DNA of 64,000 nucleotides, from the IMG/VR virus record IMGVR_UViG_3300021378_000017. One strand, given 5' to 3'. This DNA is from an uncultured virus (IMG/VR IMGVR_UViG_3300021378_000017). Its lineage: Duplodnaviria > Heunggongvirae > Uroviricota > Caudoviricetes. Under the pieces are notes generated by a model. The model was not told where the DNA came from and searched no databases. It worked only from the letters and a program-made list of their open reading frames with translations. This document shows positions 10,932 through 52,605 of this stretch, piece after piece (positions within the stretch are counted from its first letter, which is position 1; every line of letters starts with the position of its first letter). Position numbers and translations under genes: made by a program.

Positions 10932-11595
10932 ATAATTCCTTTGTCATAATAAAGTCTCTTACGAATCCACTTCGTACGATATCTTCCCATGAAAATTCGA
11001 TATGATCAAAATATTTCATGTTTTTAATAATGTTAATAAATTCTTTAATTCCGTCTTTATCGCCATTTCTTGTAAAATCAGATTGGTAATAATCACCTGA
11101 CATTATAAATCGGCAGTCTTCACCTAACCTTGTGATTACTGAACATAGCTCATGGTAATTACAGTTTTGAGATTCATCAACTATTACAATTGCATTCTTA
11201 ATAGTTAATCCTCTTATAAACGAAGTTGTAAGAAACTCTATATTTTTATTTTGGACCATTTTGGACCATCCATCGTTATCTTGAAATAAATCATTAACAA
11301 TAGCTTTATAAGGTGCAGTGTATGCATCTTCTTTTTCTTCTTGTGTTCCTGGTAAAAATCCCATATCTCTTGTAGGAACAGCAGAACGAACAATAATAAC
11401 CTTACTGTATTCTTTCTTTAAGACAGCTTCTAATGCAAGATATAGTGATATAAAGGTTTTACCTGTACCTGCTGAACCATCTAAACACATATGATTACCA
11501 GAAGCAAATGAATCAAATGCTAATTTTTGGTTTTCTGTTAGTGGTTCTAATTTGGCTAAATGTTCAATTCTAAGTTTTGATGGCTTCTTATTCAT
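10912..11595 (-). CDS. phoH: PhoH-family ATPase
   Basis: GSAGTGKT, MGFLPG, FIRGLT, IVDESQN, ITRLGE, GDYYQSD, DIVRSG. Confidence 0.95.
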   Translation of the reverse strand: MNKKPSKLRIEHLAKLEPLTENQKLAFDSFASGNHMCLDGSAGTGKTFISLYLALEAVLKKEYSKVIIVRSAVPTRDMGFLPGTQEEKEDAYTAPYKAIVNDLFQDNDGWSKMVQNKNIEFLTTSFIRGLTIKNAIVIVDESQNCNYHELCSVITRLGEDCRFIMSGDYYQSDFTRNGDKDGIKEFINIIKNMKYFDHIEFSWEDIVRSGFVRDFIMTKELYENGKL

Positions 11596-11834
11596 TGTGT
11601 TTTAATCTTATCCCTATCCTGTGGTGGTAATCCACTTTTAATTCTATCTTGAACTTCTTTCCAACCGCCTCCAGCTCTTGTTAATATAGATTTATTTCCT
11701 TCGTAACCTATATGAGATGGAGATATAACTTGCTGAATATTTGGATCTTTAACATATTCTTCCATATCAGCAATTGACATCATTTTAGTTTCTACTTCAC
11801 CAGTTTCTAAATTTTTAAAATCATACATTGGCAT
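11592..11834 (-). CDS. Conserved hypothetical protein (MPxYDF family)
   Basis: MPMYDFKNLETGE...GGWKEV; likely start at 11834. Confidence 0.6.
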   Translation of the reverse strand: MPMYDFKNLETGEVETKMMSIADMEEYVKDPNIQQVISPSHIGYEGNKSILTRAGGGWKEVQDRIKSGLPPQDRDKIKTQ

Positions 11835-12375
11835 AATTAAACCACTCCGGTACTTCTCGTTTAGTCCAAGCCATGTTGAACCTGTGTTGTTTTGTTTCAT
11901 AAAATTTACGATAAGACGTAATAGGACATTCTGATATACATTCCGGAAATGAAGCCATTGCTAATTTAAACGGTGTCATTGGTATTTGAGGAATATTATC
12001 TGGTGTATCATATAACTCACCTCTGAGTTTTGTATCTGTCGCATGTATTTTACCATATCTGTATGTATACTCATCACATAAGGCTACAAAATGTTCATAG
12101 TGCCATTTGTAATTATGTACTGATTCTCTAGTCCATACTGTAGATGGATGATTAAAATGACATGCTTTATAGAGAATATCTTCTCTTTCGTCATTCAGTT
12201 TAAAGTATTGTAACATGGAACCAGACTTCGATGGCCTACGTTCCATTACACCATCAAGCATACGATGTACTGTAGAAAGCATTTGTGCTGATTCTACAAT
12301 CATTTTGACCACATGTTTATCGCATTGATCTTGTGCCGCTTTCACTGGATCATCATTTAAAATAAATATATTCAT
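11821..12375 (-). CDS. Pyrimidine-dimer DNA glycosylase (DenV-like) family protein
   Basis: MNIFIL...DKHVVKMIVESAQMLST, H.NHPSTVW, EYTYRYGK.H. Confidence 0.75.
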   Translation of the reverse strand: MNIFILNDDPVKAAQDQCDKHVVKMIVESAQMLSTVHRMLDGVMERRPSKSGSMLQYFKLNDEREDILYKACHFNHPSTVWTRESVHNYKWHYEHFVALCDEYTYRYGKIHATDTKLRGELYDTPDNIPQIPMTPFKLAMASFPECISECPITSYRKFYETKQHRFNMAWTKREVPEWFNYANV

Positions 12376-19193: not shown

Positions 19194-19217
19194 ATTTGTG
19201 TTTCATTTAATATATCT

Positions 19218-19246
19218 ATTATACCATAAAACTCAACAAATGTACA
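19218..19246 (-). promoter_or_regulatory. Early promoter (nrdA)
   Basis: TGTACA-N17-TATAAT. Confidence 0.75.
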
Positions 19247-19256
19247 CTGGTTTGTG

Positions 19257-19502
19257 TTATTTTATTTTGAGTCTTCTTTCAATTTCAATTATGCGGGCAT
19301 GCATATTTGGATATTGTTTTGCAAATTTTGCATCCTTTTTTGCTAGTTCTAAATCATACTTTTCAGCAAAGTGTTCCATAAATCTGTCGACTTGCCTTTG
19401 GAACCATATACCACCTTTAGTACCTTGGAACCAGTTGTAAAATGAAGAACCTATGATAGAACTTAAAATAGATTTTAGTGATAGTATTAGTAGAAAGTAC
19501 AT
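19257..19502 (-). CDS. Hypothetical protein with hydrophobic N-terminus
   Basis: ORF track; coupled to the lipase gene. Confidence 0.5.
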   Translation of the reverse strand: MYFLLILSLKSILSSIIGSSFYNWFQGTKGGIWFQRQVDRFMEHFAEKYDLELAKKDAKFAKQYPNMHARIIEIERRLKIK

Positions 19503-25562: not shown

Positions 25563-26006
25563 TTAGTTTCCTTTAATAGTTCTTACTACTTTACTTATAA
25601 TCATTTTAGTAGCAGTAAAATATGCCCAACCATATCCGTAAAAGATATGAAAGGTATGATTTTTTTCGATAGCAGCTTTATTACCAAATTTCTTAGTCCA
25701 ATTATCAACGTATTCGCCTTTGTATCTTAAGACAGCATGAGACATTTTCCATTTGCTTGGTCCAACACAACAAATACCAGCCTGGTGAGTTAATAACATC
25801 CACCACATTTTAATATGGCTTTCACCACATAATCTGTAAAGAATAGATAAAGAATAATCTTCGCAGTCTCCTACAAATTTTCCTTCGCCATTTGGTGAAT
25901 ATATAATTTTCCATGCATCAGCCATGCCGTACTGTTCTTTATCTTTTCTGTATTTCCATTTAGAGTTAAATGATGATACGATTTTGTCTCTTTCTTTATT
26001 TGTCAT
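25563..26006 (-). CDS. Transglutaminase-like cysteine protease
   Basis: GDCEDYS...HAVL...VDN putative Cys-His-Asp triad. Confidence 0.65.
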   Translation of the reverse strand: MTNKERDKIVSSFNSKWKYRKDKEQYGMADAWKIIYSPNGEGKFVGDCEDYSLSILYRLCGESHIKMWWMLLTHQAGICCVGPSKWKMSHAVLRYKGEYVDNWTKKFGNKAAIEKNHTFHIFYGYGWAYFTATKMIISKVVRTIKGN

Positions 26007-26671
26007 TTTTTTTGTCCCTTTATCCACTTAACTGCAAGTGAATTTTCCGGTGGTTTCTTAGCCCACTGTTGTATATCCTTATAAGTTTCTAATGTAGATG
26101 TTTCAATATCTGCGTCCGTTGAGTTATCTATTACTGTCATTCTATTACGAAAAAGCCCTTGGAATTTACCAATATTTTTCTGTACTGATTTCCACATTTT
26201 TTCTACTTGTTCATCTGGTAATACTCTATCTCTGCTTTTATTTCGTTTTAATGCAGTTTCTAAATCAGTATTAACAAATATCATATGTACAGCATATCCT
26301 ATAGATCTAAACTGATCAACATTAGCCTTTATTTTAGCGTAATCTTTACCAGTTCCATCTATAACTACTCCTAATCTTCCCTTTAATGCTAAGGTTAACT
26401 GTTTACCAGTAATAGTTTTAGCTTTATCTCTTAATGCTTGGCCTTGAGCAGAAAATATAGATTCTGGCTCCATTGTAAGTCCAGCCTTTTTAAGAGCATT
26501 TTCATAATTAGTATCTGTATTTATAAGTTTAAACCCTAATGACACTAATGATGTTTTACCTACAACAAATGATTTTCCAGAACCTGGACCACCTGCTAGG
26601 AATACAGCCTTAAAAATGGAAGGATCATTAATGCCTTCCATAATATTATAATGTTCTTTAAAACTATCCAC
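26003..26671 (-). CDS. P-loop kinase (Zeta-toxin / Pnk-like)
   Basis: LAGGPGSGKS, INTD, VIDGTG, ALKRNKSRDR lid; GTG start gives MDSFKEHYNIME. Confidence 0.8.
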   Translation of the reverse strand: MDSFKEHYNIMEGINDPSIFKAVFLAGGPGSGKSFVVGKTSLVSLGFKLINTDTNYENALKKAGLTMEPESIFSAQGQALRDKAKTITGKQLTLALKGRLGVVIDGTGKDYAKIKANVDQFRSIGYAVHMIFVNTDLETALKRNKSRDRVLPDEQVEKMWKSVQKNIGKFQGLFRNRMTVIDNSTDADIETSTLETYKDIQQWAKKPPENSLAVKWIKGQKK

Positions 26672-26894
26672 CGAACTCATGACCTGCAACTCTTTTCATT
26701 TGCTTATTAAATTCTGATTGTGATGGTTTAGTCTTATATAATTTAATAGATAAATGATCTTTTTCTTTACCTTTAATTCTCCACTCATAACCTTTTTCTT
26801 TATGCTCAGGCTTAGTCGTTTTTACAACTCTTCTTTTATATCCTGCTTCCCAAGATTCGCTTTTCTTTTCTCTAAGCTCTTTAAATGTTTTCAT
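26664..26894 (-). CDS. Small basic protein, capsid-targeting-like N-terminus
   Basis: MKTFKELRE. Confidence 0.55.
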   Translation of the reverse strand: MKTFKELREKKSESWEAGYKRRVVKTTKPEHKEKGYEWRIKGKEKDHLSIKLYKTKPSQSEFNKQMKRVAGHEFGG

Positions 26895-33656: not shown

Positions 33657-34319
33657 TTATACTATTTCGTTATAAGGGAATACTTTTGATATAACTTCAC
33701 CACAAATCTTAGCAATCTCTATATGTTCCTTTTGAGTGCCGTGTGCTGACCTCAATTGGATATAGTGAATCCATGATCTAAGAGTACCATTAACGTACAT
33801 TCTGCTCATAGTTAATCCTTCAGGTAATACTGCTCTGGCCTGCTCTTTAGCAATACCAGCTTCAATAGCCCAGTCATATGCTTGTCTGCACCTTTCGATT
33901 ATTACTTCTTGGTACGATTCCCAAACATAATTAATAGAATCTTCTTGGTTTAATTCAATAGAATTCTGTCTATTTTTAGTATCCTGCATCCTAGCTTCTC
34001 TTGTGGTAAATTCTAAATCTTTAGTGGGATCAGCATACCTTTGAGAAAATTCTTGGAATGAAAAAGATCTGTGTCTTAAAATTTGTCGTGCTATATCTCG
34101 TGTAGTATTAATTTCCATACAAACTGATACCATTTCTAATGGAGACCAATGTTGATTTTTAATTAAATACTTAACGAGTTTTTCTGATGTTTCATGACTT
34201 GTTTGGTTTCCAGGATTGGACACTCGAGCACAGTATGAAACTAATTGAAGAAGATCCTCGCCCGTTGTCGGGGCGAGGTCCTCTGAGGGTTGCGAATATG
34301 ATATAAGACTCACGTTCAT
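33657..34319 (-). CDS. thyX: FAD-dependent thymidylate synthase
   Basis: HWSPLE, RQILRHRSFSFQEFSQRY, EQARAVLP, TQKEH. Confidence 0.95.
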   Translation of the reverse strand: MNVSLISYSQPSEDLAPTTGEDLLQLVSYCARVSNPGNQTSHETSEKLVKYLIKNQHWSPLEMVSVCMEINTTRDIARQILRHRSFSFQEFSQRYADPTKDLEFTTREARMQDTKNRQNSIELNQEDSINYVWESYQEVIIERCRQAYDWAIEAGIAKEQARAVLPEGLTMSRMYVNGTLRSWIHYIQLRSAHGTQKEHIEIAKICGEVISKVFPYNEIV

Positions 34320-36198: not shown

Positions 36199-37258
36199 CA
36201 TCTTCCTCTGAAAGTACAGTGAAATCTTCGTCCATTGCAATTAATGGCTTCTGGCCAATTTGATAATGACCTTTAACAAATTTCTTAAAATCAGTTCCTT
36301 CAAAAATTGGAGTCCAAAATTCTTTATCAAGAGTATCTTTTTCTCTTACCTTTGGATCTAACAACTCACCTGTTTCTCTATCAACTCTACAGTACCAACC
36401 ATTGCTTGGTTTAGCAACATAATTTCCAGCTAGTGCTACATCAAGTAAGCCACTGTATTCTGAAATACCACCTTCCCATGTTACACTAATTGGAATCTTA
36501 GATTTTTCTTTTACAAACCTTGATTTCTCAACATTAACAACAAAGTCGTATCCTTTAACTTCGGATCCTTTTTTGTTCTGCCTTCTACCAATAATCCAAA
36601 TGTTATCAGCTGAATAGTAAATTCCAGTACCACCTGATACAACTGCTTTAGGAAACAATCCAATTTCTTGGTATGTATGATTAACAGCAAGTAAAGGGAT
36701 GTTCTTCATAGTCAGATAAGGAGTAACCATTCTGAACAATCCCTTTAGTGCTTTAGCTCTTGACATATCAGCAACTGATTTTTCGTTTAATGCATCTTCT
36801 AATTCTTTCTTAGAAGCTAGGTTACCAATAGAATCGATTACGACAATAACTTTATCATCTCTTTCAATCGTATCTAATTGATTAACTAAATCAAACTTTA
36901 GTTGCTCTACGTCTGTGATTGGTGTGTGTAATACCCTTGAAACATCAATTCCAAAGGACTCAAAGTAAGATTGTGGTGAACCAAATTCTGAATCATAAAA
37001 TAGCATGACTGCATCATCGTGTTCTTTCATATATGCTCCAGCCATCAATAATGCAAACGAGGTTTTAAAATGTTTACTTGGACCTGCTAAAACTGTTAGA
37101 CCAGATGATAAACCACCATCGACATCTCCTGAAAGTGCGACGTTTATCATTGGTACACTTGTTGTAACTATATCCTTTTCACCAAAGTATATTGATTTTT
37201 CTAGAGTATCAGTACCTTTAATTCTAGAGTTCTTTTTAAGTTTATCCATTATGCCCAT
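36191..37258 (-). CDS. uvsX: RecA-like recombinase UvsX
   Basis: AGPSKHFKT, FYDSEFG, IDSIGNLASKKE, DMSRAK. Confidence 0.96.
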   Translation of the reverse strand: MGIMDKLKKNSRIKGTDTLEKSIYFGEKDIVTTSVPMINVALSGDVDGGLSSGLTVLAGPSKHFKTSFALLMAGAYMKEHDDAVMLFYDSEFGSPQSYFESFGIDVSRVLHTPITDVEQLKFDLVNQLDTIERDDKVIVVIDSIGNLASKKELEDALNEKSVADMSRAKALKGLFRMVTPYLTMKNIPLLAVNHTYQEIGLFPKAVVSGGTGIYYSADNIWIIGRRQNKKGSEVKGYDFVVNVEKSRFVKEKSKIPISVTWEGGISEYSGLLDVALAGNYVAKPSNGWYCRVDRETGELLDPKVREKDTLDKEFWTPIFEGTDFKKFVKGHYQIGQKPLIAMDEDFTVLSEEDDV

Positions 37259-37518
37259 TATTTTCCTCCTCGACCACGTTCAGGTCTTAATTGCATTGAG
37301 CGTTCTTTTTTGCGCCATCTGGCTAAAGCTTCTGCTTTTTTCCTTTTCTTTTTAGCAGTTGGTTTTTCGTAAAACTCTTTACGTCTTACATCTTGAAGAG
37401 TTCCAGCTCTTTCAACTGCCTTTCTAAATTTTCTAAGAGCAACATCGAATGGCATTTCGGTTGCTGGTCTTTTATCTTTTGGGTGCCTCTTACGAGGTCT
37501 TAAATCTACACTTGGCAT
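37258..37518 (-). CDS. rpsU: Ribosomal protein bS21 homologue
   Basis: [37 protein letters not shown]. Confidence 0.9.
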
Positions 37519-37543: not shown

Positions 37544-37572
37544 ATTATACCATACTTTCGGTTGAATGTACA
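37544..37572 (-). promoter_or_regulatory. Early promoter (rpsU-uvsX-41)
   Basis: TGTACA-N17-TATAAT. Confidence 0.75.
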
Positions 37573-38399
37573 TGGTTAAATTGAATGTTTTGTTCTTTTT
37601 CTCTTTCGTCTCTTTCATATTGAGATCTATAATCATTGTTTATCTCAATTGCTTTGGCCAAAAGAGAAAGTTCATTACTGAATTTTGCAAAAGCCAAAGT
37701 ATCTTTAGGAAAACATGCACCGCCGTATCCTTGTTTTCCATCAAATCCTGGAACCTTAGTATGTGAAGGTGCAATTCTATTATCAGCACCAACTGCTTTA
37801 ATAATAGTATTGAAATTGACATCGCCGTTAGTTCTACACAGATCGTAGAGCTGATTAAAGAATGTAATCTTAGTTGCTAGGAATGAATTGATTGTGTATT
37901 TAACCAAAGAAGCTTCTTCATGGTTCATATGATAAGATGGGCATGGTGTACATAAACTATATTTTTCGTAGAATTCTTCTAACCTTTTAGTATTATATAT
38001 GTCTCCACCAAAGATATGAAACTCAGGATTCACAAATTGTTCACATGCAGACTTTTCTGTTAAAAATTCTGGATTATAGACAACATTATTCCAAAATTTA
38101 TATTCAGCTATTACATTTGGTGTAACAGTTGATTTAATAACAATTAGTGTTTCCTTTAAGCATTCATCGAGATTATCCATTACAGATTTTAAAATACTGC
38201 TATTGATATTACCATCGTCGCCCATAGGTGTAGGAACACACACAAAAATTAAATCGGGTTTCCAATCTTTTAATTTGTATTGATCATTATCAGTATGACC
38301 ATAGTTCGGATCTAAGATTTTCTTTTCTACTTGCTGATTACTAAATCCGTAATCAACTGCTTTACCTACAAAACCATGTCCTATAATTGCTAATCTCAT
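37545..38399 (-). CDS. UDP-glucose/GDP-mannose 6-dehydrogenase family (short form)
   Basis: [43 protein letters not shown]. Confidence 0.9.
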
Positions 38400-39193
38400 T
38401 ATATATTACCATCCCAGTTTAAGTCTAATTGTTTCATTGTTTGCGTTTTATAATCATCTTCTAATACATGGTGGTTTGCAACCCAGCCAAATTTAGTTAA
38501 AATTGTTGGATCAGCACATGTATCTTGTCGTTCACCAGTAACTTCTTTTAGTGGTAAATTATTCTCTGGCCAAACTTTATCAGCCATTTCCTTTACTGTA
38601 ACAGGTTTACCATTACCAACATCAATTGCTTTATTATGAACTATCATATCAAAGTATGTTATGCAAATATCTATTGCACTGCATACGTCATCAACATGAG
38701 TCCAATCTCTAGTATGATTAGTTAGGTATGTTAACTTTGGATCTTTTCTTAAAAGCGCATCGTATAGCATATCTTCTCTGCTATCAGGACCATACACAGT
38801 ATGGAATCTTAATCCAATAGAATTTTTAGGTGCTATAGCTTCCATAGCATATTTTGTAGAAGCATAAGGTGATAACCACCATTCATAAACACTTGATGAT
38901 GAAGCATATATGATTGGAACATTAGCTTTTTCGCATGCTTCAAAAATATACTTAGATGCTTCTACATTAGTTTTCCAATATTCTTGTGGAATTTCATGTG
39001 ATCTTCGAACTCCAGCTAAAGCTGCAAGGTGTATCACGAAATCAAAATCGCTTACGATAATACCTTCTGCATTTCTAATGTCTGCAGTGTACTCTACAAT
39101 CTCATATTGATTACCATATTTCTTTGCAAACCTGCTTCCAATAAAACCTTTCCTTGGTCCACTTTTGCTTCCTGTCAATAATATTCTTATCAT
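38399..39193 (-). CDS. NAD-dependent sugar epimerase (UDP-glucuronate 4-epimerase-like)
   Basis: HLAALAGVRRS, YASSSSVY, YASTK, GLRFHTVYGP, RDWTHVDD. Confidence 0.85.
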   Translation of the reverse strand: MIRILLTGSKSGPRKGFIGSRFAKKYGNQYEIVEYTADIRNAEGIIVSDFDFVIHLAALAGVRRSHEIPQEYWKTNVEASKYIFEACEKANVPIIYASSSSVYEWWLSPYASTKYAMEAIAPKNSIGLRFHTVYGPDSREDMLYDALLRKDPKLTYLTNHTRDWTHVDDVCSAIDICITYFDMIVHNKAIDVGNGKPVTVKEMADKVWPENNLPLKEVTGERQDTCADPTILTKFGWVANHHVLEDDYKTQTMKQLDLNWDGNI

Positions 39194-40398
39194 AAAAATG
39201 CCTCTAAACTATTTTCTTCTCTTTTATAATCATAACTTCTATTTAAATTATTTTGGAATAAGTAACTTGTTTCAACACTATCCCTTTTACCTTCTAATAC
39301 TGCTTTAACCTCTATTGCCATATCCCTTGCTGTAGCAAATGGAACGTTTTGGCAGATATGATTATAATTCTTTTCTACATCTAGTACTTCCATATCTAAG
39401 GGTAATCCCATAATAGCTTTACCTTCAGCAACATTTAAGTATCTGTCTTCTACTGGATGTGCAATAACTTTAGGTAAATGTACAACGAATGCTCCAATAT
39501 AATTAATTGGAATAATTGTACCTCTAAGCATGATTCCACCGCCTGATGCAATCTTACCTGCTTTACGTCTAGCCTTTGCAGCTTCTCTTTCAAACTGAGG
39601 ATATTGATCCATCCATTCAGCAAGTTTAAGATGATCATGCCCAAGTTTCATTAACCTAGATTCTACATTAATAGACTTTTCTTCATGTGAATGTCTTTCA
39701 ACAAATTCAGCATGAGTACATTTAGATTCAACCTCAAGTGTGTACTTATAATATGGATCATCTTGCGAAGGTGTTTTTGTATTTAAAACTTGTGTTTGAA
39801 AGTTTGTATCGACACCTTTAATTAGATCTTGAATCATAGGTCTTTCTTTATTATAATAGTTAAACAATGGAATCCTATCGTTAAATTCATCTTTTTTCCA
39901 AAAGAAAAAGAATGTCCTTTTACGATACTGTGGATTTCCATGTTGTAAACTTTTAGTTAAATAAATCGAAAAGTTATATCCATTATCTTGGCCAATCTTA
40001 TAGAGTTTTTCTCTCATAAATTTACCAATCTTTCCAGATAATCCTGGTGCGTTCTCTCCCCATAATACCTTTGGTTTAACTTCTTTTAAAACGTATTCAG
40101 ATGATTTTTCCATCCATTGATTGTTTTCGTTCTGTTCACCATGTGAGTTATGGTAAGTACTTAATCCAGCACATGGACAAACTGAAGAGACAATGTCCAC
40201 ATTTTCCATCTTTTCGGACGTTTCATCTAAAACATGATATGGAATGTCCTTTCCCTGTTCCTTATAATAATTTAAAAGGTGTGTTTCATTAGCCATAAAT
40301 CCAGAATATGTCATTAAATATTCTGGGTCTGTTCCATAAGCATCTGCTGATGCCAAAATTTCACCACCAATTAGTGGTACTATACCTGCGTGTTTCAT
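39190..40398 (-). CDS. Atypical DNA cytosine-C5 methyltransferase-fold protein
   Basis: CPCAG (IV), ENAPG (VI), QYRKRTFF (VIII), RYLNVAE..AIMGLP (IX), CQNVP (X); motif I reads VPLIGG. Confidence 0.75.
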   Translation of the reverse strand: MKHAGIVPLIGGEILASADAYGTDPEYLMTYSGFMANETHLLNYYKEQGKDIPYHVLDETSEKMENVDIVSSVCPCAGLSTYHNSHGEQNENNQWMEKSSEYVLKEVKPKVLWGENAPGLSGKIGKFMREKLYKIGQDNGYNFSIYLTKSLQHGNPQYRKRTFFFFWKKDEFNDRIPLFNYYNKERPMIQDLIKGVDTNFQTQVLNTKTPSQDDPYYKYTLEVESKCTHAEFVERHSHEEKSINVESRLMKLGHDHLKLAEWMDQYPQFEREAAKARRKAGKIASGGGIMLRGTIIPINYIGAFVVHLPKVIAHPVEDRYLNVAEGKAIMGLPLDMEVLDVEKNYNHICQNVPFATARDMAIEVKAVLEGKRDSVETSYLFQNNLNRSYDYKREENSLEAFL

Positions 40399-41228
40399 CC
40401 GAAAAATGTCTCCAAACTTGATTCTTGTTGTTTTTTAATTGCATCTTTATAAGCTTTTGACCAGCTAATATGACAAGTAATTCTGTCTTGTCCTTTCCAT
40501 GGTCCGTTAGCCAATACCTTGCTTTTTAGAGCAACATAATCTGGATAAATTTCAGCTAGTTGCTGATGCACTTTATTACTTAATTCAATTGTTCTATAAT
40601 TTGAACAACCACCTGCTGTGTTAGTCGCTGTTACGCTAACACGATACCTTGTGGTAATCCTATTTGCAAACCCTTGAGTAAGCAATTGAAGATTAGCATC
40701 AAAATCTTGAGAAGTTTCTAACCTATCCCATATAAGATTCCTTGGTAAATTTTTAGAATCAAAATAACAATTAGTCATAATCCTTACATTGTTCTGGTGT
40801 GGCCAATACTTTAGATCTGGTACAACCCACGATGTTGAGAATCCACCATGATAAATCTTTTCTTCTTTTATCCATTTATCGAATGTGGCAAAAGCGTCGT
40901 CAAACTCTTCTTCTGTCATATCCTTGGTTTCCCATTTGGTGTCCATACCTTCAGGTGCTGGGCCTTTGTATTTAAAGTATTCAAAGTCATCGTCTAAAAC
41001 CATGTGCCTTGTTCCATAAAACTCATCCCAAATCCATTGCCGTGTTGGCGATAGCCTAGAAATTTCTTTAGGTAGTTTTACTACAGCATCACCGTATCGC
41101 TCTCTCATAGGAGCGTACTCATGATCTTGAACTATAAACTTTACTAGTTTTTGATACTTTTCTGGTAAGTTATCATAAGTTCTTTGTTTGTCCATCCTAC
41201 CTAATGTAGGTATAATTAAGTGTTCCAT
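40395..41228 (-). CDS. GT-A fold DNA glycosyltransferase (T-even beta-glucosyl-hmC glucosyltransferase / TET-associated GT-like)
   Basis: IIPTLGR, TRQWI, VLDDD, QDFD..LQLL..G, GGCS.YR. Confidence 0.75.
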   Translation of the reverse strand: MEHLIIPTLGRMDKQRTYDNLPEKYQKLVKFIVQDHEYAPMRERYGDAVVKLPKEISRLSPTRQWIWDEFYGTRHMVLDDDFEYFKYKGPAPEGMDTKWETKDMTEEEFDDAFATFDKWIKEEKIYHGGFSTSWVVPDLKYWPHQNNVRIMTNCYFDSKNLPRNLIWDRLETSQDFDANLQLLTQGFANRITTRYRVSVTATNTAGGCSNYRTIELSNKVHQQLAEIYPDYVALKSKVLANGPWKGQDRITCHISWSKAYKDAIKKQQESSLETFFG

Positions 41229-41528
41229 TTATCCTCCGTTCACTAAATGCATTACTAAATTTTTAATTAGTAAAAATAATCCAGCACCATTTAATAAAAT
41301 AAGTGCTCTATCTTTCCATAAGACCGATACTATTAACCATAGAAATATTCCTACGATACTAAGTCCTAAGTCCCATACTTGAAATCCTTCAACGCCTCGT
41401 AAAGACATTGCAGCTAAAACTACGATTGAGGCTATCCATTTTATATACCAATCTAAAGTATACTTTGGTGTTGCCGATTTAAAAATTCTTTTTGAATTAG
41501 CTAATTCTTCTTCGCTATAATCAACCAT
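41229..41528 (-). CDS. Small multi-TM membrane protein
   Basis: DWYIKWIAS...G..LWLIVSVLWKDRALILLN. Confidence 0.6.
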   Translation of the reverse strand: MVDYSEEELANSKRIFKSATPKYTLDWYIKWIASIVVLAAMSLRGVEGFQVWDLGLSIVGIFLWLIVSVLWKDRALILLNGAGLFLLIKNLVMHLVNGG

Positions 41529-41775
41529 CTTTCGAAATTTCTCCTGTGTATTGAAATTCACCCTTGTCATATCGTAGTTTATATTCTTTTACAATCTCGC
41601 CAAGCATGTTCTGTTTATTTTGAACTATAATTTCTGGTGCATTTAATATATGTAATTTACTTAAATCTTTTTGAAAGCTTTCAATATGATTTTCTAAATC
41701 TTCCTTAGAGTAATCTTTAAACTTAGGGTTTCTTCTATTTTTCTTATACAGTAACTGTTCATTAAATGAAGTCAT
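41521..41775 (-). CDS. Hypothetical protein
   Basis: ORF track; overlaps neighbours. Confidence 0.5.
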   Translation of the reverse strand: MTSFNEQLLYKKNRRNPKFKDYSKEDLENHIESFQKDLSKLHILNAPEIIVQNKQNMLGEIVKEYKLRYDKGEFQYTGEISKDG

Positions 41776-42205
41776 ATGTTATACCAACCTCCTTTAATAA
41801 ATCGACTGTGTTAATTGCTGATATCTTCCATTTGTCTGGTACATCTGCAATTGTCTTAGGTGATACTACCCTCTTAACTCCAACTTGAGCTAATCCCTTT
41901 GCACATTCATTACAAACTGGTAAACCCCAAACATACATTGTAGCATTGTTTAGAGATGCTCCAGTAAATGTAGCATTATAGATACAATTCATTTCCGCAT
42001 GAACTACATAGCGGTATTTAACTTCTTTATCGTTATACCTTTCAAGTGAATCATTAACACCTCTAGGAAAACCATTATAGCCTTGTGCTAATACCTGTCC
42101 CATCTCTCCAATTGCTACTGCACCTACTTGGGTACTTGGATCTTTTGACCAAGTTGAAACTTCCCTTGCTAGGTTTAAGTATCTGTTGTCCCATTTATTG
42201 TTCAT
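41762..42205 (-). CDS. cd: dCMP deaminase
   Basis: SKDPSTQVGA, GYNGFPRG, HAEMN, PVCNECAK. Confidence 0.93.
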   Translation of the reverse strand: MNNKWDNRYLNLAREVSTWSKDPSTQVGAVAIGEMGQVLAQGYNGFPRGVNDSLERYNDKEVKYRYVVHAEMNCIYNATFTGASLNNATMYVWGLPVCNECAKGLAQVGVKRVVSPKTIADVPDKWKISAINTVDLLKEVGITYDFI

Positions 42206-42867
42206 TTGTTTACCAATTTAAAATGTCTTTCGTACACATGTAAGTTTTGTACTTGCCAAACAATTTCACCTGGAAATACTTTTAGCATATATGCCATATC
42301 GTCAAGTACTGCTTTTTGCCATGCGTAATCGTTACGATAACCAAAGATAACATCATTAGATCGCATTTGTACAACACAATCGAGTTTACCTTCACGTATA
42401 TAATATGTAACAGAGTTTGTACAGATAAAATCGTTTTTACCATTTTCATTATATTCACACCATATACTTGGTCTTGTATAAATCATTGATGCTCTACGTG
42501 AATCTGGATTTTGTAACAATTCAGATAGTGCCATATCAAATTGTGCACCGTATTTGTCTGAATAAATTAAATGACCATAATTTGAATTGATTTCACCGTG
42601 TTCATTAGCAGTCATTTTCCATGCTCCAGGTGGTTCTCTATCGCTATCTAAATAGATATCATTAATGTTTGTAGATTGGCTGTTATACCAATTTAGTTCT
42701 GCATCAATGTAAGCTTTGTTTGGAACACCAAATATAGCTGGTTCATCAGCATAAAACGAAGCACCAATTAGTTCAATTGTTTTACTACCATTTCTGTCTA
42801 CAGTAAATCTTTCATTACGAAGTTCGTTACGAAAGTAAGTTCTTAGTTGGTCGATTTCAAGATTCAT
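42202..42867 (-). CDS. 42: dCMP hydroxymethylase (T4 gp42 orthologue)
   Basis: KTIELIGASF.ADEP.IFG, GEINSNYG, NPDSRR, DFICTN, MRSNDVIFGYRNDYAWQ with the cytosine-specifying Asp, LHVYERHF. Confidence 0.92.
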   Translation of the reverse strand: MNLEIDQLRTYFRNELRNERFTVDRNGSKTIELIGASFYADEPAIFGVPNKAYIDAELNWYNSQSTNINDIYLDSDREPPGAWKMTANEHGEINSNYGHLIYSDKYGAQFDMALSELLQNPDSRRASMIYTRPSIWCEYNENGKNDFICTNSVTYYIREGKLDCVVQMRSNDVIFGYRNDYAWQKAVLDDMAYMLKVFPGEIVWQVQNLHVYERHFKLVNK

Positions 42868-43195
42868 TTTTGTTCCTATTTAAAAAGTCATTGTCTCCTG
42901 ATTGGCCATCGATACCACCTCGCATATATGCAACCATAAATGAAGCATAGTTAATTAAATCTTTACCAGAGTCTTCTAGTGATTCAAAGTTTGGGAGGTA
43001 GTCGGGATCTGATTCCATAGCTTCTAGAACTGAGAACATTCTGAGAGTTTTAGCATGGATAATATCTAGGATTGAAGCTACACCACGAGGGTAGTAATCT
43101 GCTTGTTTAATCCTAGAGTTTGGATTTTGATAGTCATTACTTTTCTTTGCCTGAAGTTCGGCACATTCTTGTAATACTTTTAGTGATTCTTTCAT
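42857..43195 (-). CDS. Nucleotide-modification-associated domain protein (Nmad1/DUF1599-like)
   Basis: KKSNDY...K..R...ESLEDS..DLINYA; first gene of the modification operon. Confidence 0.65.
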   Translation of the reverse strand: MKESLKVLQECAELQAKKSNDYQNPNSRIKQADYYPRGVASILDIIHAKTLRMFSVLEAMESDPDYLPNFESLEDSGKDLINYASFMVAYMRGGIDGQSGDNDFLNRNKNES

Positions 43196-43221
43196 AATAT
43201 AACCTTTCTGTTTATAGTACT

Positions 43222-43250
43222 ATTATACCATAGTTTTATTCAATTGTACA
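43222..43250 (-). promoter_or_regulatory. Early promoter of the DNA-modification operon
   Basis: TGTACA-N17-TATAAT. Confidence 0.78.
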
Positions 43251-43262
43251 CACTTTTTTTGA

Positions 43263-43682
43263 TTATTTTGGTTGATATATAATACCTTGCTCATTTAGAG
43301 CTTTCTTATTCCACAAGTGTCCTTGTTCAGTGTCATCTTTGGATTGACCAAAATATGGTACTGCATGGAACTCATCGATCATTTGCTGATTAACGCTTAC
43401 TGGATTATCTCCAATAAATAATTCACCAAGGATTCTACCAAACTTACCTTTATCATGTGATACTAATTTAACCTTTTGATCTTTAAGTTTTTCCACAAGA
43501 TGAGCCTTACTTGCTTTACCATAGAACTTTTCTTCTAAATTTCTAGTTCTAGATTCTGGAGTATCAATGCCCATCATACGAACTCTTTGTTTTCTATAAG
43601 ACATACCGAAACCTAAGTCGATATCTACATCAACTGTATCTCCGTCTACTACTCTTGTTACCTTTACACTGTATGTATACAT
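43263..43682 (-). CDS. Thermonuclease (SNase-like)
   Basis: RVVDGDTVD, RVRMMGIDTPE, GKFGRILG. Confidence 0.9.
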   Translation of the reverse strand: MYTYSVKVTRVVDGDTVDVDIDLGFGMSYRKQRVRMMGIDTPESRTRNLEEKFYGKASKAHLVEKLKDQKVKLVSHDKGKFGRILGELFIGDNPVSVNQQMIDEFHAVPYFGQSKDDTEQGHLWNKKALNEQGIIYQPK

Positions 43683-44520: not shown

Positions 44521-45438
44521 CTATATGTTGTTTTTAAAAATAAATTCAATAGCCCTTTCAGCTTCTTTATGAATTGGTCTTTTTGCGTACCAATTTCCAG
44601 TGTCTGCATCGAGATCTCTAATGATATACTCAATTTCTTTAGATGTTATTGGATAACCCTTAGACATTGCATTACCTGCTATTGAAACCATTATCTGATA
44701 TAGTTTGTAATACCAACCAGCACCTGATAAAGTTTTGTATTCTTCAATTTGTTTTTTGTTTATAAAAGGGCAGTCTTGATATCCTGTCCATGAAAAGTTA
44801 GTGTTATCGAGTTTTGCTTGTCGATGTTGTATAAGACCCCTTTTAATAGCTTCAGGTAACTTATCGAAAAACGATTCATTTGGTACGACGTATCTGTGTT
44901 GTTCCATAAGCTTTGCTGGGTCCATGGTAGATCCATCGTGTGAGAATATGAAATTGTAAGATCCTTTATATTTAGCTGGGACGTAGTACATTCTGCTGAG
45001 GTCTTTTGTTTGGGCATCTGCGATATCTCCTATCTCTTTATTTAATGCGTACCAAAAATGTTTGATTTCATCTTTATTTATAGCTCTTGTTAGTGGAAAT
45101 ACTAAACGAAACTTAGGGTGTTCTTTAGTCGAGCTAGCAGTGGAATAACATACGTATTTGTATCCGCTATATACTTCAGAAATATCATCGATACTTCCAG
45201 TATAATCGTCTACATCTACAATTCCAAAACCACCCCAACTAAGAACATTATCGTTTGCACGAGTTGTCTCCGGTATATAAGTTGCTGGAGATATTAGTGG
45301 TGCTGATTTTTTAGTTGGATATTTAGTACTTTCCGATAACTGATATAACACTTTTTCAAAATCATCAAAGGATTTATATGTAATGCTTTTATCAGTTTTA
45401 TTATCGTATATACTGTTAAATATCGTTAAACTTACCAT
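44521..45438 (-). CDS. Archaeo-eukaryotic primase (AEP/PrimPol)-like protein
   Basis: R.NDNV...IVDVDD, YSTASS, PKFRLVFPL, D.QTKDLSRMYYVP; helical C-terminal domain. Confidence 0.7.
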   Translation of the reverse strand: MVSLTIFNSIYDNKTDKSITYKSFDDFEKVLYQLSESTKYPTKKSAPLISPATYIPETTRANDNVLSWGGFGIVDVDDYTGSIDDISEVYSGYKYVCYSTASSTKEHPKFRLVFPLTRAINKDEIKHFWYALNKEIGDIADAQTKDLSRMYYVPAKYKGSYNFIFSHDGSTMDPAKLMEQHRYVVPNESFFDKLPEAIKRGLIQHRQAKLDNTNFSWTGYQDCPFINKKQIEEYKTLSGAGWYYKLYQIMVSIAGNAMSKGYPITSKEIEYIIRDLDADTGNWYAKRPIHKEAERAIEFIFKNNI

Positions 45439-45817
45439 GATTGCCTGCGTGTGATGGAGCGGTCCAACCTTCAGGTTTAATTAGGTCTGGAACTCCTAGT
45501 GGATTTGGCCTACTTGGCTTTTGTCCTACTTCTTTATTCATATTAGCTTCTAGTACAGCATCCCAAGCTTTATAGGGATCGACACCAAACGCATCAAGTG
45601 TACCAATAGCAACAACACATAGATCTATTAAACCATCTACAATTTCTTCTGGGTCATTATTAGTAACCGCAGCTGTTGTTTCCATTAGTTCTTCTTTCAA
45701 AAAATCAACTCTAAACTCAAGAAACTTTTTTAGTTTCTCAGGATTGGTTTCAACCCATTGTCTAGTAAGATATTTGCTTTGCATTAAGTGAATATCTTCT
45801 ACCCAATTCTTAGACAT
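45416..45817 (-). CDS. MazG-like all-alpha NTP pyrophosphohydrolase (candidate dCTPase/dUTPase)
   Basis: LKEELME...EEIVDGLIDL...V.EANMNK...DLIKPEGW. Confidence 0.75.
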   Translation of the reverse strand: MSKNWVEDIHLMQSKYLTRQWVETNPEKLKKFLEFRVDFLKEELMETTAAVTNNDPEEIVDGLIDLCVVAIGTLDAFGVDPYKAWDAVLEANMNKEVGQKPSRPNPLGVPDLIKPEGWTAPSHAGNHGKFNDI

Positions 45818-46159: not shown

Positions 46160-48673
46160 TTATCCAAAAAACTCATCTAGCGTAGATACCTCTTTTGAAG
46201 ACCAACCAATCGCATCGAGTATTGGTTCGATAGGATCTAGGAAAGTTTTTTGAAATTGGGTTTCGTGATCAATATATTTGTTTAATCCAAACTCTGTTGG
46301 AAGATAATCTAGGAATGATATAACATTTTCCTTTATAGGATTAGGCGTTCTGAGATAAATGAATTTAATCTTTTCGCCGTTATTGATTTTGTTATATCGC
46401 TTACCTAGCGATAGATCATCGATTAATTTGTTGTAAAGTATTCCGCCACGAGCATGTATCGGAGTACCTTTTCTGTAAATAGTGTTTCTGTCTTGGAATG
46501 AAGTGAGATTGGTTATACCCCTAGGGAATGCAATATCATTTGGTTCTAGTGTTCTGAAGTATTGTCTGAAATGTTCAATAGATTTTTGTACGTCAGATTC
46601 AGATGAATGCATAATAACTTTGAATATTTCTTTTAGTGCTTCTCGACATGGTGCAGGTGTAGAAGATTTAATAGCTTCAATACCCATAATTTTAAGTTTA
46701 GGTTCTGCATATCGTACACCTTCATTATCATGCACATTAAGAATGTATCGTTTCTTTGCTGTCCAAAGTCCACGATCAGCAATTACTTCTCGTCCCATGA
46801 CCATTTTGTTTTCGATACCACCCATGATACTATATAGCTTTTTATATGCTTCTTCAAGGACAGGTTCTAGCTTTTCTCTACAGACAGTGTCTAGAAAATC
46901 AATAGGATTACTAGGGTTAACTGCTTTAACTAGGTCGTTTAAGCATACATACACTGAATCTGTGTCAATTGCCAAGACGTAATCTTTGTTCGTTTTGAGC
47001 ACTTTATTGAGATACGTATTGATGGCTTCTTCAGCCCATCGTATGGTAAGTTGTCCGGAAAGTGTAATTCCTTCGGCAATTCGTTGATCGAAGAATCTGA
47101 AATACTTGTTGCCGAGAGCACCATAAAGAGAATTAAGAAGAATTTTAATAGACATTTGCCTGTTTTCGTTAATTGCAATATCCCTTTCAATTCTATAGAC
47201 TTCTTGTTTATCATTTTTATCTACCTTTTGTAATTCCTTTTGTGCTTTAATCATAGCCTTTTTAATTTGAACTCTTTCGCCATACATCTGTTCGATGATC
47301 TTAGGTAGAATACCCTTTTTGTCGATATTGAAATATTGGCCATTTGCACTTACAGCCTTTCCTCTGTTATCTACAATTGTATGGTTTTTAAGAATACTAT
47401 CGACATCATAATCAGATAATTCACCAGATGCTATTGTTTCAGGTGACATATTGTATTGCATAATTAGCGATGGATATAGTGAGTTTAAATCGAAAGATAC
47501 TACCCAATCATTTATTCCAACTTGTGGATCTTTAACATAACCGCCAGGATATGGTGTTTTTACTTTATCCTCTTGAAATGGAACTGCAATCTTTTGAGTT
47601 GAGAGATCTCTGTAAATAATAGAATCCCATATCGCTGTAGTTCCAAATGTATCGCCATAGTTAACACCACCGCGATATGCCATAGTTAAAGCTAGTGTAA
47701 TAAGACCAAGTTTGTCTTCGATCCTATCGACTAATTCAACATCCTTAATGTTATAATCAATAAACTTTTGATGATCATTTAAGTATAAACTAAATAAACT
47801 TGAGTGCTCTTCGTACGAAAGTTTTTTCTCGCCTAGAACAACATGTGATATATGATTAAGTGAATATGATTCTTGTGCACCATATGAATAACCAAACTTC
47901 TTGAATAGTTCCATATAGTCGAGTTGAGATATACCAGCAATTTCGTATGCAGTTTGCTTACGAGCCATAATAGTAACATCACGTGAATCAATTAATCCCC
48001 AAGGTGATAACTTTTTAACCCAGTCAGAACCTAGTAAATTATTGATTCTGTTTACAAGATATGGAATATCAAAGAATCTTGAGTTCCAACCAGTAACAAC
48101 ATCTGGGCAATGTGTTGGTGATGACCAATGTGTTATAAAATCCAAAAGTAATTGGCCTTCAGTATCGCACTTTTTATATACGACACGATTGGTTTGCATA
48201 ATAGATTGATTTACATCGTAATCTCTTAATGCCCACACATAATAAGTATTGTCAATATTGTTTTTAATACAGATAGCAGTAACTTCTTTTGAGGCTACAT
48301 CTGGTTCAGGAAACCCGTCGTCTGATGCGACTTCGATATCGATTGTAGTAACATTAATTGCGTTACGATCAAATTCAATATCACCTGGAAACTTTTCGTT
48401 TATAAACGTAGAAATATAACGGTTGTTTCCGTATATTTTTCGTCCTGAAACTTCTTTGTTTAAACTAATCCAATCTTTAGCATCACGCATAGATTCGAAT
48501 TGTGTGACTGGTGCAACTGGAGTTCCATCCAATGCTTTCCAATCTGTAGGTTTACTTGTAGCGACGTACAAGGTTGGTTTGTATTTTACCTTTCTGCTTA
48601 CTCGATTACCGTTTTCGATACCACGATAGAGTAACATATTGCCGTATCGGCCGACATTAGTATAAAAATTCAT
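46160..48673 (-). CDS. 43: Family B DNA polymerase gp43
   Basis: DIEV exonuclease, FDLNSLYPS, KILLNSLYGALGN, AIDTDS, KKRY; C-terminal TLDEFFG clamp peptide. Confidence 0.98.
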   Translation of the reverse strand: MNFYTNVGRYGNMLLYRGIENGNRVSRKVKYKPTLYVATSKPTDWKALDGTPVAPVTQFESMRDAKDWISLNKEVSGRKIYGNNRYISTFINEKFPGDIEFDRNAINVTTIDIEVASDDGFPEPDVASKEVTAICIKNNIDNTYYVWALRDYDVNQSIMQTNRVVYKKCDTEGQLLLDFITHWSSPTHCPDVVTGWNSRFFDIPYLVNRINNLLGSDWVKKLSPWGLIDSRDVTIMARKQTAYEIAGISQLDYMELFKKFGYSYGAQESYSLNHISHVVLGEKKLSYEEHSSLFSLYLNDHQKFIDYNIKDVELVDRIEDKLGLITLALTMAYRGGVNYGDTFGTTAIWDSIIYRDLSTQKIAVPFQEDKVKTPYPGGYVKDPQVGINDWVVSFDLNSLYPSLIMQYNMSPETIASGELSDYDVDSILKNHTIVDNRGKAVSANGQYFNIDKKGILPKIIEQMYGERVQIKKAMIKAQKELQKVDKNDKQEVYRIERDIAINENRQMSIKILLNSLYGALGNKYFRFFDQRIAEGITLSGQLTIRWAEEAINTYLNKVLKTNKDYVLAIDTDSVYVCLNDLVKAVNPSNPIDFLDTVCREKLEPVLEEAYKKLYSIMGGIENKMVMGREVIADRGLWTAKKRYILNVHDNEGVRYAEPKLKIMGIEAIKSSTPAPCREALKEIFKVIMHSSESDVQKSIEHFRQYFRTLEPNDIAFPRGITNLTSFQDRNTIYRKGTPIHARGGILYNKLIDDLSLGKRYNKINNGEKIKFIYLRTPNPIKENVISFLDYLPTEFGLNKYIDHETQFQKTFLDPIEPILDAIGWSSKEVSTLDEFFG

Positions 48674-51933: not shown

Positions 51934-52605
51934 TTATACGCCAAATGTTGACGCTTTCTCTAAAGCGATAAAATATTTAACTGCCATTGATGAACATGTC
52001 CACTGTGAAATTAGTTTAGAACTGATATTCACAAAGTAATCACCTTCGATCAATTTTAGATTATTAATATTTACGATGAAATTAAACTCTTCAGTACAAT
52101 CGTTATTGTCGTTAAGTTCAATATCAAATGAGTTAGCAGTGGCATCTGAACTATCAACTACTGATAGTGTTACTTTACCGCCGTTACCTTTAATAGACAT
52201 TTCAGTATGTCCAAGTACAGCAGCTGCTTTACGAACCTGTGATAAAACTTCCTGTGTAATGGAAATTCCAACTTCGGTGTCTGGCATTGTAATTTCTTTA
52301 GAAGGAGATGTTAAGATCTCTGGCTCTGAAAAGAAATATGTTACAGTGTTACCACCTGAAGTAATCTTAACGTTTTTATCTTGAAAATCAAAGTTTGGAT
52401 CTTGTACCAAATTTGAAACAGATAAGAACTCATTAAGATCATAGATTCCAAACTCTGTAGGAAAATCATCAGTGCCATCAGCAACAGCCATAATGTTTTT
52501 AGCTTCAGAGATTGTTTTTAGTTGACCACCAGGTTTAATCACAATGTTAGGATTAATGGTAGCAAAGTTTTTCAATACCTTGAGAGTATCGTTTGTTATA
52601 TTCAT
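51934..52605 (-). CDS. 45: Sliding clamp gp45
   Basis: TLKVLKNFATINPNI, FGIYDLNEFLS, YFIALE; early promoter at 52632-52660. Confidence 0.95.
   Translation of the reverse strand: MNITNDTLKVLKNFATINPNIVIKPGGQLKTISEAKNIMAVADGTDDFPTEFGIYDLNEFLSVSNLVQDPNFDFQDKNVKITSGGNTVTYFFSEPEILTSPSKEITMPDTEVGISITQEVLSQVRKAAAVLGHTEMSIKGNGGKVTLSVVDSSDATANSFDIELNDNNDCTEEFNFIVNINNLKLIEGDYFVNISSKLISQWTCSSMAVKYFIALEKASTFGV

Follow-up and report, generated by a model that had tools for sequence, protein, structure and literature searches.

In the 5-hydroxymethylcytosine (hmC) pathway of phage T4, 5-hydroxymethyl-dCMP (5hm-dCMP) is made by gp42 before replication and a sugar is transferred to the base after replication, and one of the glycosyltransferases (GTs), alpha-GT, is known to be associated with the sliding clamp. 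A second design has been described from metaviromes, where genes for a C5-methyltransferase (C5-MT), a 5mYOX (TET) enzyme, a GT-A and an epimerase are clustered ("subclass II", contig 57). According to that preprint, a GT-A and epimerase pair of this origin made a hexuronic acid adduct of hmC (HexA-5hmC, 433 amu) in Escherichia coli in an epimerase-dependent manner (bioRxiv 10.1101/2023.12.21.572611). Here we analyzed a window of 64,000 nucleotides, the whole stretch of DNA under study, from an uncultured virus (IMG/VR record IMGVR_UViG_3300021378_000017). It contains an operon in which a T4-type gp42 is found together with a TAGT/JGT-like glycosyltransferase of the GT-A type, an epimerase, a short dehydrogenase resembling UDP-glucose 6-dehydrogenase (UGDH), and a Dcm-fold protein, that is, one resembling C5-cytosine methyltransferases. 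Judged from the sequence, the DNA of this phage very probably contains hmC, and glycosylation of this base by the TAGT is likely. That the sugar is a hexuronate made by the epimerase and the short UGDH is a tentative reading, to which we give a probability of roughly 0.45.

Relation to Described Systems

The locus shares with T4 the synthesis of 5hm-dCMP by a gp42-type enzyme before replication and, as predicted, the transfer of the sugar after it. Its glycosyltransferase, however, belongs to the GT-A TAGT/JGT-like type and not to the T4 alpha-GT and beta-GT families, no homologue of a gp1-type kinase or of the dCTPase gp56 was identified in the window, and the operon adds sugar-nucleotide-type enzymes and the Dcm-fold protein. 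The subclass II clusters are similar in having a JGT-like GT-A with an epimerase, a C5-MT-fold gene and the HexA-hmC product that is proposed here, but hmC in the window would come from gp42 before replication, and a short UGDH is encoded by the phage itself. According to the preprint, database mining recovered GT-A genes about equally often beside thymidylate synthase (TS) homologues, and genes for dCMP deaminase, methyltransferases, epimerases and clamps were located in the vicinity; in the same text the word "dehydrogenase" occurs once, within the name of a HAD-like enzyme (bioRxiv 10.1101/2023.12.21.572611). A search for the TET family (Tet_JBP) in four related partial genomes found nothing, but little can be concluded from this, as the control genomes were also silent.

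The arabinosyl-5-hydroxycytosine clusters of RB69, DLP3 and HY126 also combine a TS homologue, a phage-made activated sugar and DNA glycosyltransferases in a T4-like cluster. They differ in their D169N TS homologues, which lead to 5-hydroxy-dCMP where the window enzyme keeps Asp like T4, and in a route from ribulose 5-phosphate to UDP-arabinose and GT-B transferases, all unrelated to the window enzymes (PMC13326640). The DNA of Bacillus phage SP-15 carries phosphoglucuronolactone on dihydroxypentyluracil, so that a glucuronate derivative on phage DNA is chemically known, and its UGDH gene adjoins glycosyltransferases. Unlike the present case, the SP-15 base is derived from uracil, the linkage is a phosphodiester, and the UGDH shares only about 30% identity with its counterpart in the window. 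The SP-15 enzyme was considered as another short form and rejected, as its coding sequence of 1311 nt gives a full-length protein of 436 amino acids (aa).

The T4 paradigm, the pairing of GT-A with an epimerase, the HexA-5hmC adduct and the survey-level gene architecture were thus known already. New is the specific pelagimyophage operon with a T4-type gp42, a dehydrogenase that lacks its third domain, clamp-type tails on the TAGT and the Dcm-fold protein, and a strict linkage between gp42 and the Dcm-fold protein. An initial annotation of this DNA, made from the sequence alone, was unaware of a uronic acid adduct of this kind; because HexA-5hmC has already been obtained from metavirome GT-A and epimerase pairs, hexuronate-hmC cannot be called a new adduct. 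In the literature searched we found no description of a phage operon with gp42, a GT and UGDH, or of a clamp-linked C5-MT in hmC phages, although the supplements of the metavirome preprint could list such an operon.

Operon Structure and Predicted Synthesis of Hydroxymethyl-dCMP

One promoter followed by a tightly packed minus-strand run of nine open reading frames (ORFs) had been proposed, and all of them were found in place (43195 down to 37545). Neighboring ORFs overlap by 1–50 nt or abut, and the sole gap (43196–43262) contains the promoter-like site, an early-type promoter of the form TGTACA-N14-TGGTATAAT (43222..43250, minus strand), which was the top site in the scan. The motif TGTACA-N14-TGNTATAAT has 14 mismatch-free copies in the window versus 0.08 expected, and this count was reached in 0 of 100 shuffles; therefore, the site is not a chance occurrence. 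The copies extend from 9550 to 60350, 13 of them on the minus strand. Since one copy heads the run, none lies inside it and the next one (37544..37572, minus strand) is situated at its 3' end, ahead of the gene for ribosomal protein S21, the reading as a single transcription unit is well founded. This motif family probably marks early or middle transcription units of the phage. Directly upstream of the operon promoter there is a gene for a staphylococcal-nuclease-type endonuclease (43263–43682), which could degrade unmodified (host) DNA.

The gene at 42202..42867 (minus strand) encodes a dCMP hydroxymethylase of 221 aa, an orthologue of T4 gp42 (5hmdCMP synthase). With phmmer, residues 3–220 were aligned to residues 6–226 of the 246 residues of the T4 enzyme (1B49/1B5D/1B5E) at an expectation value (E) of 3.4e-69. 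The blocks DFICTN and MRSNDVIFGYRNDYAWQ match T4, and identity to T4 is found throughout the block MRSND...FG.RNDYAWQ. DFICTN and YRND are aligned with DFMCTN and FRND of T4, and the window protein has Cys and Asp at the places where T4 variants in the PDB depart from the wild type (FMSTN in 6a9a, FRNN in 6a9a and 6l18). According to published rules for the TS family, enzymes with Asp at the position of ThyA N177 act on dCMP, those with an acidic residue at L143 give a non-methyl product, and Asn at D169 is the mark of the 5-hydroxy-dCMP synthases of RB69 and DLP3 (PMC13326640). The window gp42 has Asp at all three equivalent positions (E. coli numbering, mapped via the T4 alignment) and is, therefore, of the T4 (5hm) type and not of the 5-hydroxy type. 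The motif RSND..FG.RND with its Asp had been read as the mark of a dCMP-type hydroxymethylase, which both the T4 match and this residue signature support.

A dCMP deaminase is encoded next to gp42 (41762..42205, minus strand; PF00383, E 1.3e-18; phrog_174, E 4.3e-41). It also adjoins UGDH in relatives without gp42 and is, for this reason, considered a core gene. ThyX, which had been said to supply dTMP from elsewhere in the window, was located at 33657..34319 (minus strand; PF02511, E 5e-41), 8 kb from the deaminase region of the operon. For the removal of dCTP, the sole candidates in the window are two small proteins, and either or both may deplete this nucleotide. One is a MazG-like NTP pyrophosphatase (45416..45817, minus strand; PF01503, E 1.1e-11; phrog_671; weak match to the MazG-like DR2231), a candidate dCTPase/dUTPase. 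The other is a four-helix protein of 112 aa, Nmad1/DUF1599-like, encoded by the first ORF of the operon (42857..43195, minus strand). In several relatives these two ORFs are direct neighbors.

The position of the Nmad1-like ORF agreed with the initial annotation, while its family match stayed below threshold and was obtained via two homologues only. The protein itself matched no Pfam family even at E 5; its homologues in loci L083 and L061 (73–75% identical) matched PF07659 at E 3.7e-4 and 1.3e-3, with 19.5–21.2 bits versus a cut-off of 25. The AlphaFold2 (AF2) model is a four-helix unit with a predicted local distance difference test (pLDDT) score of 93.3, for which MazG/dCTPase folds appeared only as weak rows. 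Because the 112-aa protein matches positions 170–252 of phrog_18404 ("hydrolase") and the MazG ORF matches positions 47–139 of the same profile, fused MazG/Nmad1-like forms seem to exist. The matches to adjacent halves of one profile and the neighboring position in several relatives suggest a two-part nucleotide hydrolase. In 32 of 54 loci, the gene for the 112-aa protein precedes gp42 at a distance of at most 700 nt, and the protein is possibly a nucleotide pyrophosphatase-type partner of gp42. The only P-loop kinase candidate in the window (26003–26689) was examined as a specific hm-dCMP kinase partner and rejected, because it is also present in the gp42-less genome G003; its product has no relative in the PDB.

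The TAGT Glycosyltransferase and Clamp-Type Tails

The TAGT (40395..41228, minus strand) is a predicted DNA glycosyltransferase of 277 aa that ends in a clamp-binding-like tail. It matches PF20691 (E 6.8e-18; 65.8 bits versus a cut-off of 27.5) and phrog_842 (E 1.6e-36). R11, D79-D80-D81 and D175-F176 were invariant in seven sequences, and the first position of the third motif was Q in six of them and E in L083. In the metavirome preprint, R...DDD...EDY/F is the active-site motif of phage GT-A/JGT-like enzymes (bioRxiv 10.1101/2023.12.21.572611). A sequence search against PDB chains returned nothing at E 1 or better. The AF2 model, built from a seven-row alignment (mean pLDDT 59.7), had no Foldseek match at E 0.001 or better, and GnT-I and TarP were found only as weak rows. 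The assignment as a GT-A DNA glycosyltransferase was thus upheld by family and motif, while the fold itself received no structural confirmation from this poor model.

C-termini of the form [ST]L[DE]xF[FL] occur in only three of the main ORFs of the window, namely in the DNA polymerase (STLDEFFG), the TAGT (SSLETFFG) and the Dcm-fold protein (NSLEAFL). Among the fetched relatives, such a tail ends all 51 polymerase homologues, all 37 TAGT homologues and 32 of 33 Dcm-fold homologues, and none of the epimerase (0/53), UGDH (0/102) or gp42 (0/37) homologues. The gp43 polymerase (46160..48673, minus strand; Pfam DNA_pol_B) served as the reference for the tail, and the gp45 sliding clamp (51934..52605, minus strand; PF09116) is the presumed docking partner. 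The C-terminal peptide of the T4 and RB69 polymerases binds the gp45 clamp. T4 alpha-GT also binds gp45 (PMC13216743). By sequence, the TAGT and the Dcm-fold protein appear to dock on gp45 via a polymerase-type peptide. Owing to these tails, both would act on DNA at or behind the replication fork, whereas gp42, the epimerase and the dehydrogenase, whose homologues do not have the tail, would be enzymes of the soluble pool.

The Epimerase and the Short Dehydrogenase

The epimerase (38399..39193, minus strand; PF01370) is a shortened extended short-chain dehydrogenase/reductase (SDR) of 264 aa that resembles UDP-glucuronate (UDP-GlcA) 4-epimerases. Its top PDB relatives are MoeE5 (6kv9, E 1.1e-15), 5u4q and BcUGAepi (6zl6); MoeE5 and BcUGAepi are GlcA 4-epimerases. 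The NAD motif and the Ser/Tyr/Lys triad are kept (TGxxGFIG, S98/S100, Y110xxxK114 and GLRFxTVYG). However, the relatives have 312–346 aa, and several loops are deleted in comparison with epimerases of 312–319 aa. The earlier reading of its motifs as those of UDP-GlcA 4-epimerases was supported by the closest relatives and the triad.

The dehydrogenase (37545..38399, minus strand; PF03721 and PF00984) is a two-domain short NDP-sugar 6-dehydrogenase of 284 aa. It covers positions 76–298 of the 413 positions of TIGR03026 and ends without the C-terminal UDP-binding domain (PF03720), and its residues 48–254 were aligned to residues 85–301 of the 446 residues of 4a7p (E 6.8e-26). The segments GHGFVG, KST (T91), NPEFLxE, K167/N171 and GGACFPKD were invariant in 17 sequences and could be aligned to 4a7p and 3vtf. 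The best 120 of 6029 homologues are 211–294 aa long and have the same two domains; therefore, the short form does not result from damage to one gene. The statement that this UDP-glucose dehydrogenase makes UDP-GlcA is in keeping with the catalytic residues, but the product is unproven since the UDP-binding domain is gone, and we do not file the protein as a bona fide UGDH. The short proteins constitute a large family that is widespread in pelagimyophages. UGDH-like genes are also present in phages with unusual DNA, including Campylobacter phages CP220, CP21 and CPt10, Listeria phage LIS04, Vibrio phage Kuja and Microbacterium phages; in the last of these the gene adjoins a glycosyltransferase.

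Proposed Pathway and Gene Neighborhoods

We propose the following pathway. The gp42 orthologue would convert dCMP to 5hm-dCMP, a step well supported by homology, the deaminase and ThyX would supply dTMP, and the MazG-like and/or Nmad1-like small all-alpha proteins may deplete dCTP. The resulting hm-dCTP would be incorporated at replication, and the TAGT, held on the gp45 clamp, would transfer a sugar to hmC in the new DNA, as suggested by its family, its motifs and its tail. The donor would be a UDP-hexuronate, at about even odds: the short UGDH-like enzyme would oxidize C6 of glucose, the SDR would give the galacturonate form, and the product would be an anionic hexuronosyl-hmC. Finally, the Dcm-fold protein, a clamp-tailed companion of gp42, would act on the same DNA.

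Co-occurrence of the sugar genes with gp42 had been put forward as a check, and its outcome depended on the gene from which relatives were collected: it held in TAGT-seeded loci that reach far enough, and it failed in half of the UGDH-seeded loci with enough flank and in one related TAGT clade. All 24 TAGT-seeded loci contained the Dcm-fold gene; the epimerase was present in 23, UGDH and the deaminase in 22 each, and gp42 in 20, and all misses were at contig ends. In the 25 TAGT rows that were examined, neither the epimerase nor UGDH occurred without the other, and the TAGTs with both genes nearby formed one clade (16 rows, support 90/96, branch 0.45). In loci L021–L024, TAGT, epimerase, UGDH and Dcm-fold genes are contiguous elsewhere in the genome, beside gp45, and the 67-kb contig contains no uvsX. 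Because this block stays together at another position, a functional coupling of the four genes can be argued. Two further loci (L128 and L129) have the order gp42, deaminase, TAGT, epimerase and UGDH, with no Dcm-fold gene.

Alternative Explanations

Several findings weigh against a hexuronate made by these two enzymes, and most of them would be expected if hmC carried a neutral sugar from the host pool (e.g., from UDP-glucose) and the short UGDH and the epimerase were host-surface or metabolic neighbors, which is the main rival explanation. A search seeded with UGDH gave 566 relatives, and in the best 80, which were examined, UGDH lay mostly just upstream of uvsX, with or without gp42. Among the 24 loci of this set with at least 8 kb upstream and at least 4 kb downstream, gp42 was present in 12 and the TAGT in 10. 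The complete genomes of G003 and phage C48C1 possess UGDH and neither gp42 nor the TAGT, so that UGDH and the epimerase have, or also have, another role. In 10 loci where gp42 was not found, the epimerase was directly upstream of UGDH, although one of these loci is truncated at its start. One TAGT clade (L131–L137 and L140–L142) has the order gp42, deaminase, TAGT, Dcm-fold gene and UvsX, with no epimerase or UGDH, and the TAGT tree, whose sequences are related, reflects no more than one or two events. In T-even-like phages, relatives of the TAGT carry the annotation glucosyltransferase. A pelagimyophage survey reads UGDH, rfaE and the glycosyltransferases as lipopolysaccharide (LPS)-type host-surface genes, and describes restriction systems as rare in SAR11 (PMC7029224).

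Three points concern the enzymes themselves: no hm-dCMP kinase was identified in the window; the UGDH, with all its catalytic residues kept, is without the UDP-binding domain, and the literature searched contained no characterized two-domain UGDH; and it is not obvious what a C5-methylase would act on in DNA whose cytosine is fully replaced by hmC. Nevertheless, a neutral sugar is at odds with the contiguity of the TAGT, epimerase, UGDH and Dcm-fold genes at their other position in L021–L024, with the joint presence and absence of the epimerase and UGDH in TAGT loci, which tracks a TAGT subclade, with the experimental precedent for epimerase-dependent HexA-hmC, and with the location of all nine ORFs between two promoter copies. 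We regard a neutral sugar as unlikely, though it is the rival that survives best.

If the short dehydrogenase and the shortened SDR tailored the sugar on DNA, glucosyl-hmC being oxidized and epimerized in place, it would be clear why the UDP-binding domain and the substrate loops were lost. The domain is gone in the window protein and in its 120 best homologues, although the catalytic residues do not vary, and the loops missing from the epimerase are those around the sugar pocket. However, neither protein has a clamp tail, nor does any of the 53 epimerase and 102 UGDH homologues, the short UGDH is also encoded in genomes that have neither gp42 nor the TAGT, L021–L024 pair it with a full-length epimerase of 314 aa, and we know of no precedent for the tailoring of a sugar on DNA by such a dehydrogenase or SDR. 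Tailoring in place is thus very improbable.

The base could also be hydroxymethyluracil (hmU), if the deaminase converted 5hm-dCMP to 5hm-dUMP, the JGT-like TAGT glycosylated hmU and the Dcm-fold protein methylated ordinary cytosine. This scheme would give the Dcm-fold methylase a substrate, JGT, to which the TAGT family is related, acts on hmU, and a deaminase gene comes after gp42 in 22 of 24 TAGT loci and in 50 of 53 Dcm-fold loci. Yet the deaminase behaves as a core gene that also stands beside UGDH in gp42-less relatives, T4 has both gp42 and a dCMP deaminase, the phage's own ThyX supplies normal dTMP, and a dUMP hydroxymethylase would be a more direct route; we give the hmU scheme hardly any weight. 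That the TAGT acts on an acceptor other than DNA, either the host envelope or a virion protein, and leaves bare hmC is the least credible explanation, for although pelagimyophage glycosyltransferases are read as O-chain modifiers in PMC7029224 and the AF2 model is too poor for an examination of a DNA-binding surface, PF20691 is a family of DNA glycosyltransferases, every TAGT homologue ends in the polymerase-like tail, and the TAGT adjoins gp42 in every locus reaching far enough.

Some relatives have other genes around gp42. In L083 (288–5267; same contig as L138), Nmad1, cupin, phosphomannomutase-like HAD and cytidylyltransferase-like genes are located directly upstream of gp42, deaminase, TAGT and epimerase, a hint that another activated sugar is used there. 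In a further locus, a B12-binding radical SAM protein is encoded between gp42 and the TAGT in L021 (4437–6383), and a 315-aa phrog_1574 protein with a faint GT-21 match is encoded between the Dcm-fold gene and gp45 of the same locus (11314–12261). In L061, which is positive for gp42 and negative for the TAGT, a 374-aa phrog_14998 protein (18360–19484) occupies the TAGT slot between the deaminase and a full-length epimerase and may be another DNA glycosyltransferase.

The Dcm-Fold Protein

The Dcm-fold protein (39190..40398, minus strand; PF00145, E 1.6e-17) had been assigned no role in the initial annotation, and it is the tightest companion of gp42. Among the 53 Dcm-seeded loci that extend 4 kb or more in the upstream direction, gp42 was located upstream in 50, the three misses being at contig starts; the same loci contained the TAGT in 14 and UGDH in 13 cases. 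Since it tracks gp42 and not the sugar genes, the Dcm-fold protein belongs with hmC synthesis and not with a particular sugar. At least 2260 relatives, about 400 aa in length, belong to this family. Cultured phages with distant Dcm-fold homologues, namely S-TIM5-like cyanophages and Pseudoalteromonas phage vB_Psh_XG4, pair them with a dCMP-type TS homologue. In vB_Psh_XG4 (PP712099.1, unannotated; L110, 100–6580), one cluster contains, in this order, genes for a gp42-like TS homologue, a HAD protein, a nucleotidyltransferase/APH-kinase fusion, two GT-B-like enzymes and a Dcm-fold protein without a clamp-type tail. The "ThyA" of cyanophage S-TIM54 (L109, 4114–4956), encoded two genes from a Dcm-fold homologue, has Cys at the position of ThyA L143 and Asp at that of N177, and it may therefore act on dCMP.

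Like the canonical C5 methyltransferases (M.HhaI, M.HaeIII and Dcm; PF00145), the window protein keeps motifs IV (PC), VI (ENx), VIII (QxRxR) and X. It differs from them in the invariant PLIGG that replaces FxGxG of motif I, in its clamp tail, in its conserved variable region and in having gp42 upstream. PLIGG, PCAGLS, WGENAP, Q.R.R and CQNVP were invariant in 21 sequences, in which the variable region was also highly conserved. With M.HaeIII and M.HhaI, only motifs IV–VIII and IX–X could be aligned, and for residues 1–64, corresponding to the region of motifs I–III, neither sequence nor profile searches gave an alignment to a solved methyltransferase. Within this region, the acidic residue after N37 and the invariant D58 could still serve in the binding of S-adenosylmethionine (AdoMet).

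In the simplest reading, the Dcm-fold protein would methylate cytosines that escaped replacement. We also considered that it is a new kind of clamp-tethered DNA-cytosine enzyme of the hmC pathway, with the domain-less UGDH family of marine phages acting in parallel on something other than free UDP-sugars, and we think this rather doubtful. In that case, the protein would keep the machinery that attacks C6 of cytosine, with the N-terminal cofactor region rebuilt, and could complete or edit the modification on DNA. It could hydroxymethylate or derivatize escaped cytosines, or activate hmC or glycosyl-hmC for an exchange of the C5 substituent.

Other Features of the Window and Its Distribution

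Two small ORFs lie between the deaminase and the TAGT. The DUF6552 protein (41229..41570, minus strand; PF20189, E 4.3e-19) is small, hydrophobic and membrane-like, shows 61–92% identity in syntenic relatives, and is absent from L021–L024 and L083. The other, orf84 (41521..41775, minus strand), has no family match and was found only in close relatives, at 81–93% identity where neighboring genes reach 97–100%, and one contig from an RNA library has insertions within it. It is poorly conserved in sequence and may not be a real gene.

The phage is a T4-like marine myophage, with gp23, gp43, gp45/44/62, UvsX/Y/W, ribonucleotide reductase, ThyX, regA and other genes of this type. Homologues of ribosomal protein S21 (37258–37518) and of the curli protein CsgF (495–977), an rfaE-like nucleotidyltransferase and a UDP-glucose dehydrogenase are all found in the window, and the survey gives these four as hallmarks of pelagimyophages (PMC7029224). 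The rfaE-type gene, a sugar-activation gene for a heptose-1-phosphate adenylyltransferase-like protein (9591–10037; phrog_7878, E 6.4e-35), is distant from the operon.

A megablast search of the operon against 50,697 phage records gave no match. Near-identical contigs were found in IMG/VR, as were contigs with a TAGT protein identity of 45–79%. In four seawater RNA libraries from four studies, contigs that are 90–99% alike covered 25–30 of 30 operon bins, and some of them spanned the promoter region; such libraries may contain DNA, so these contigs show neither expression nor transcript ends.

Implications

Pelagimyophage-like phages are very abundant in seawater, and the chemistry of their DNA is essentially unexplored. 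The clamp tails offer a simple, testable rule by which the glycosyltransferases and base modifiers that act on DNA could be separated from envelope enzymes in T4-like phages. The Dcm-fold family presents an open problem, namely a conserved cytosine-attacking enzyme in genomes where little unmodified cytosine is expected, and because the cultured phage vB_Psh_XG4 has both gp42 and Dcm-fold genes, this problem is directly testable. If hmC in the phage analyzed here does carry an acidic sugar, the natural range of DNA glycans would extend into an abundant group of marine phages, and the sequencing, cloning and restriction of such genomes would be affected. It would also explain why the phage of a streamlined host brings its own sugar-oxidizing enzymes.

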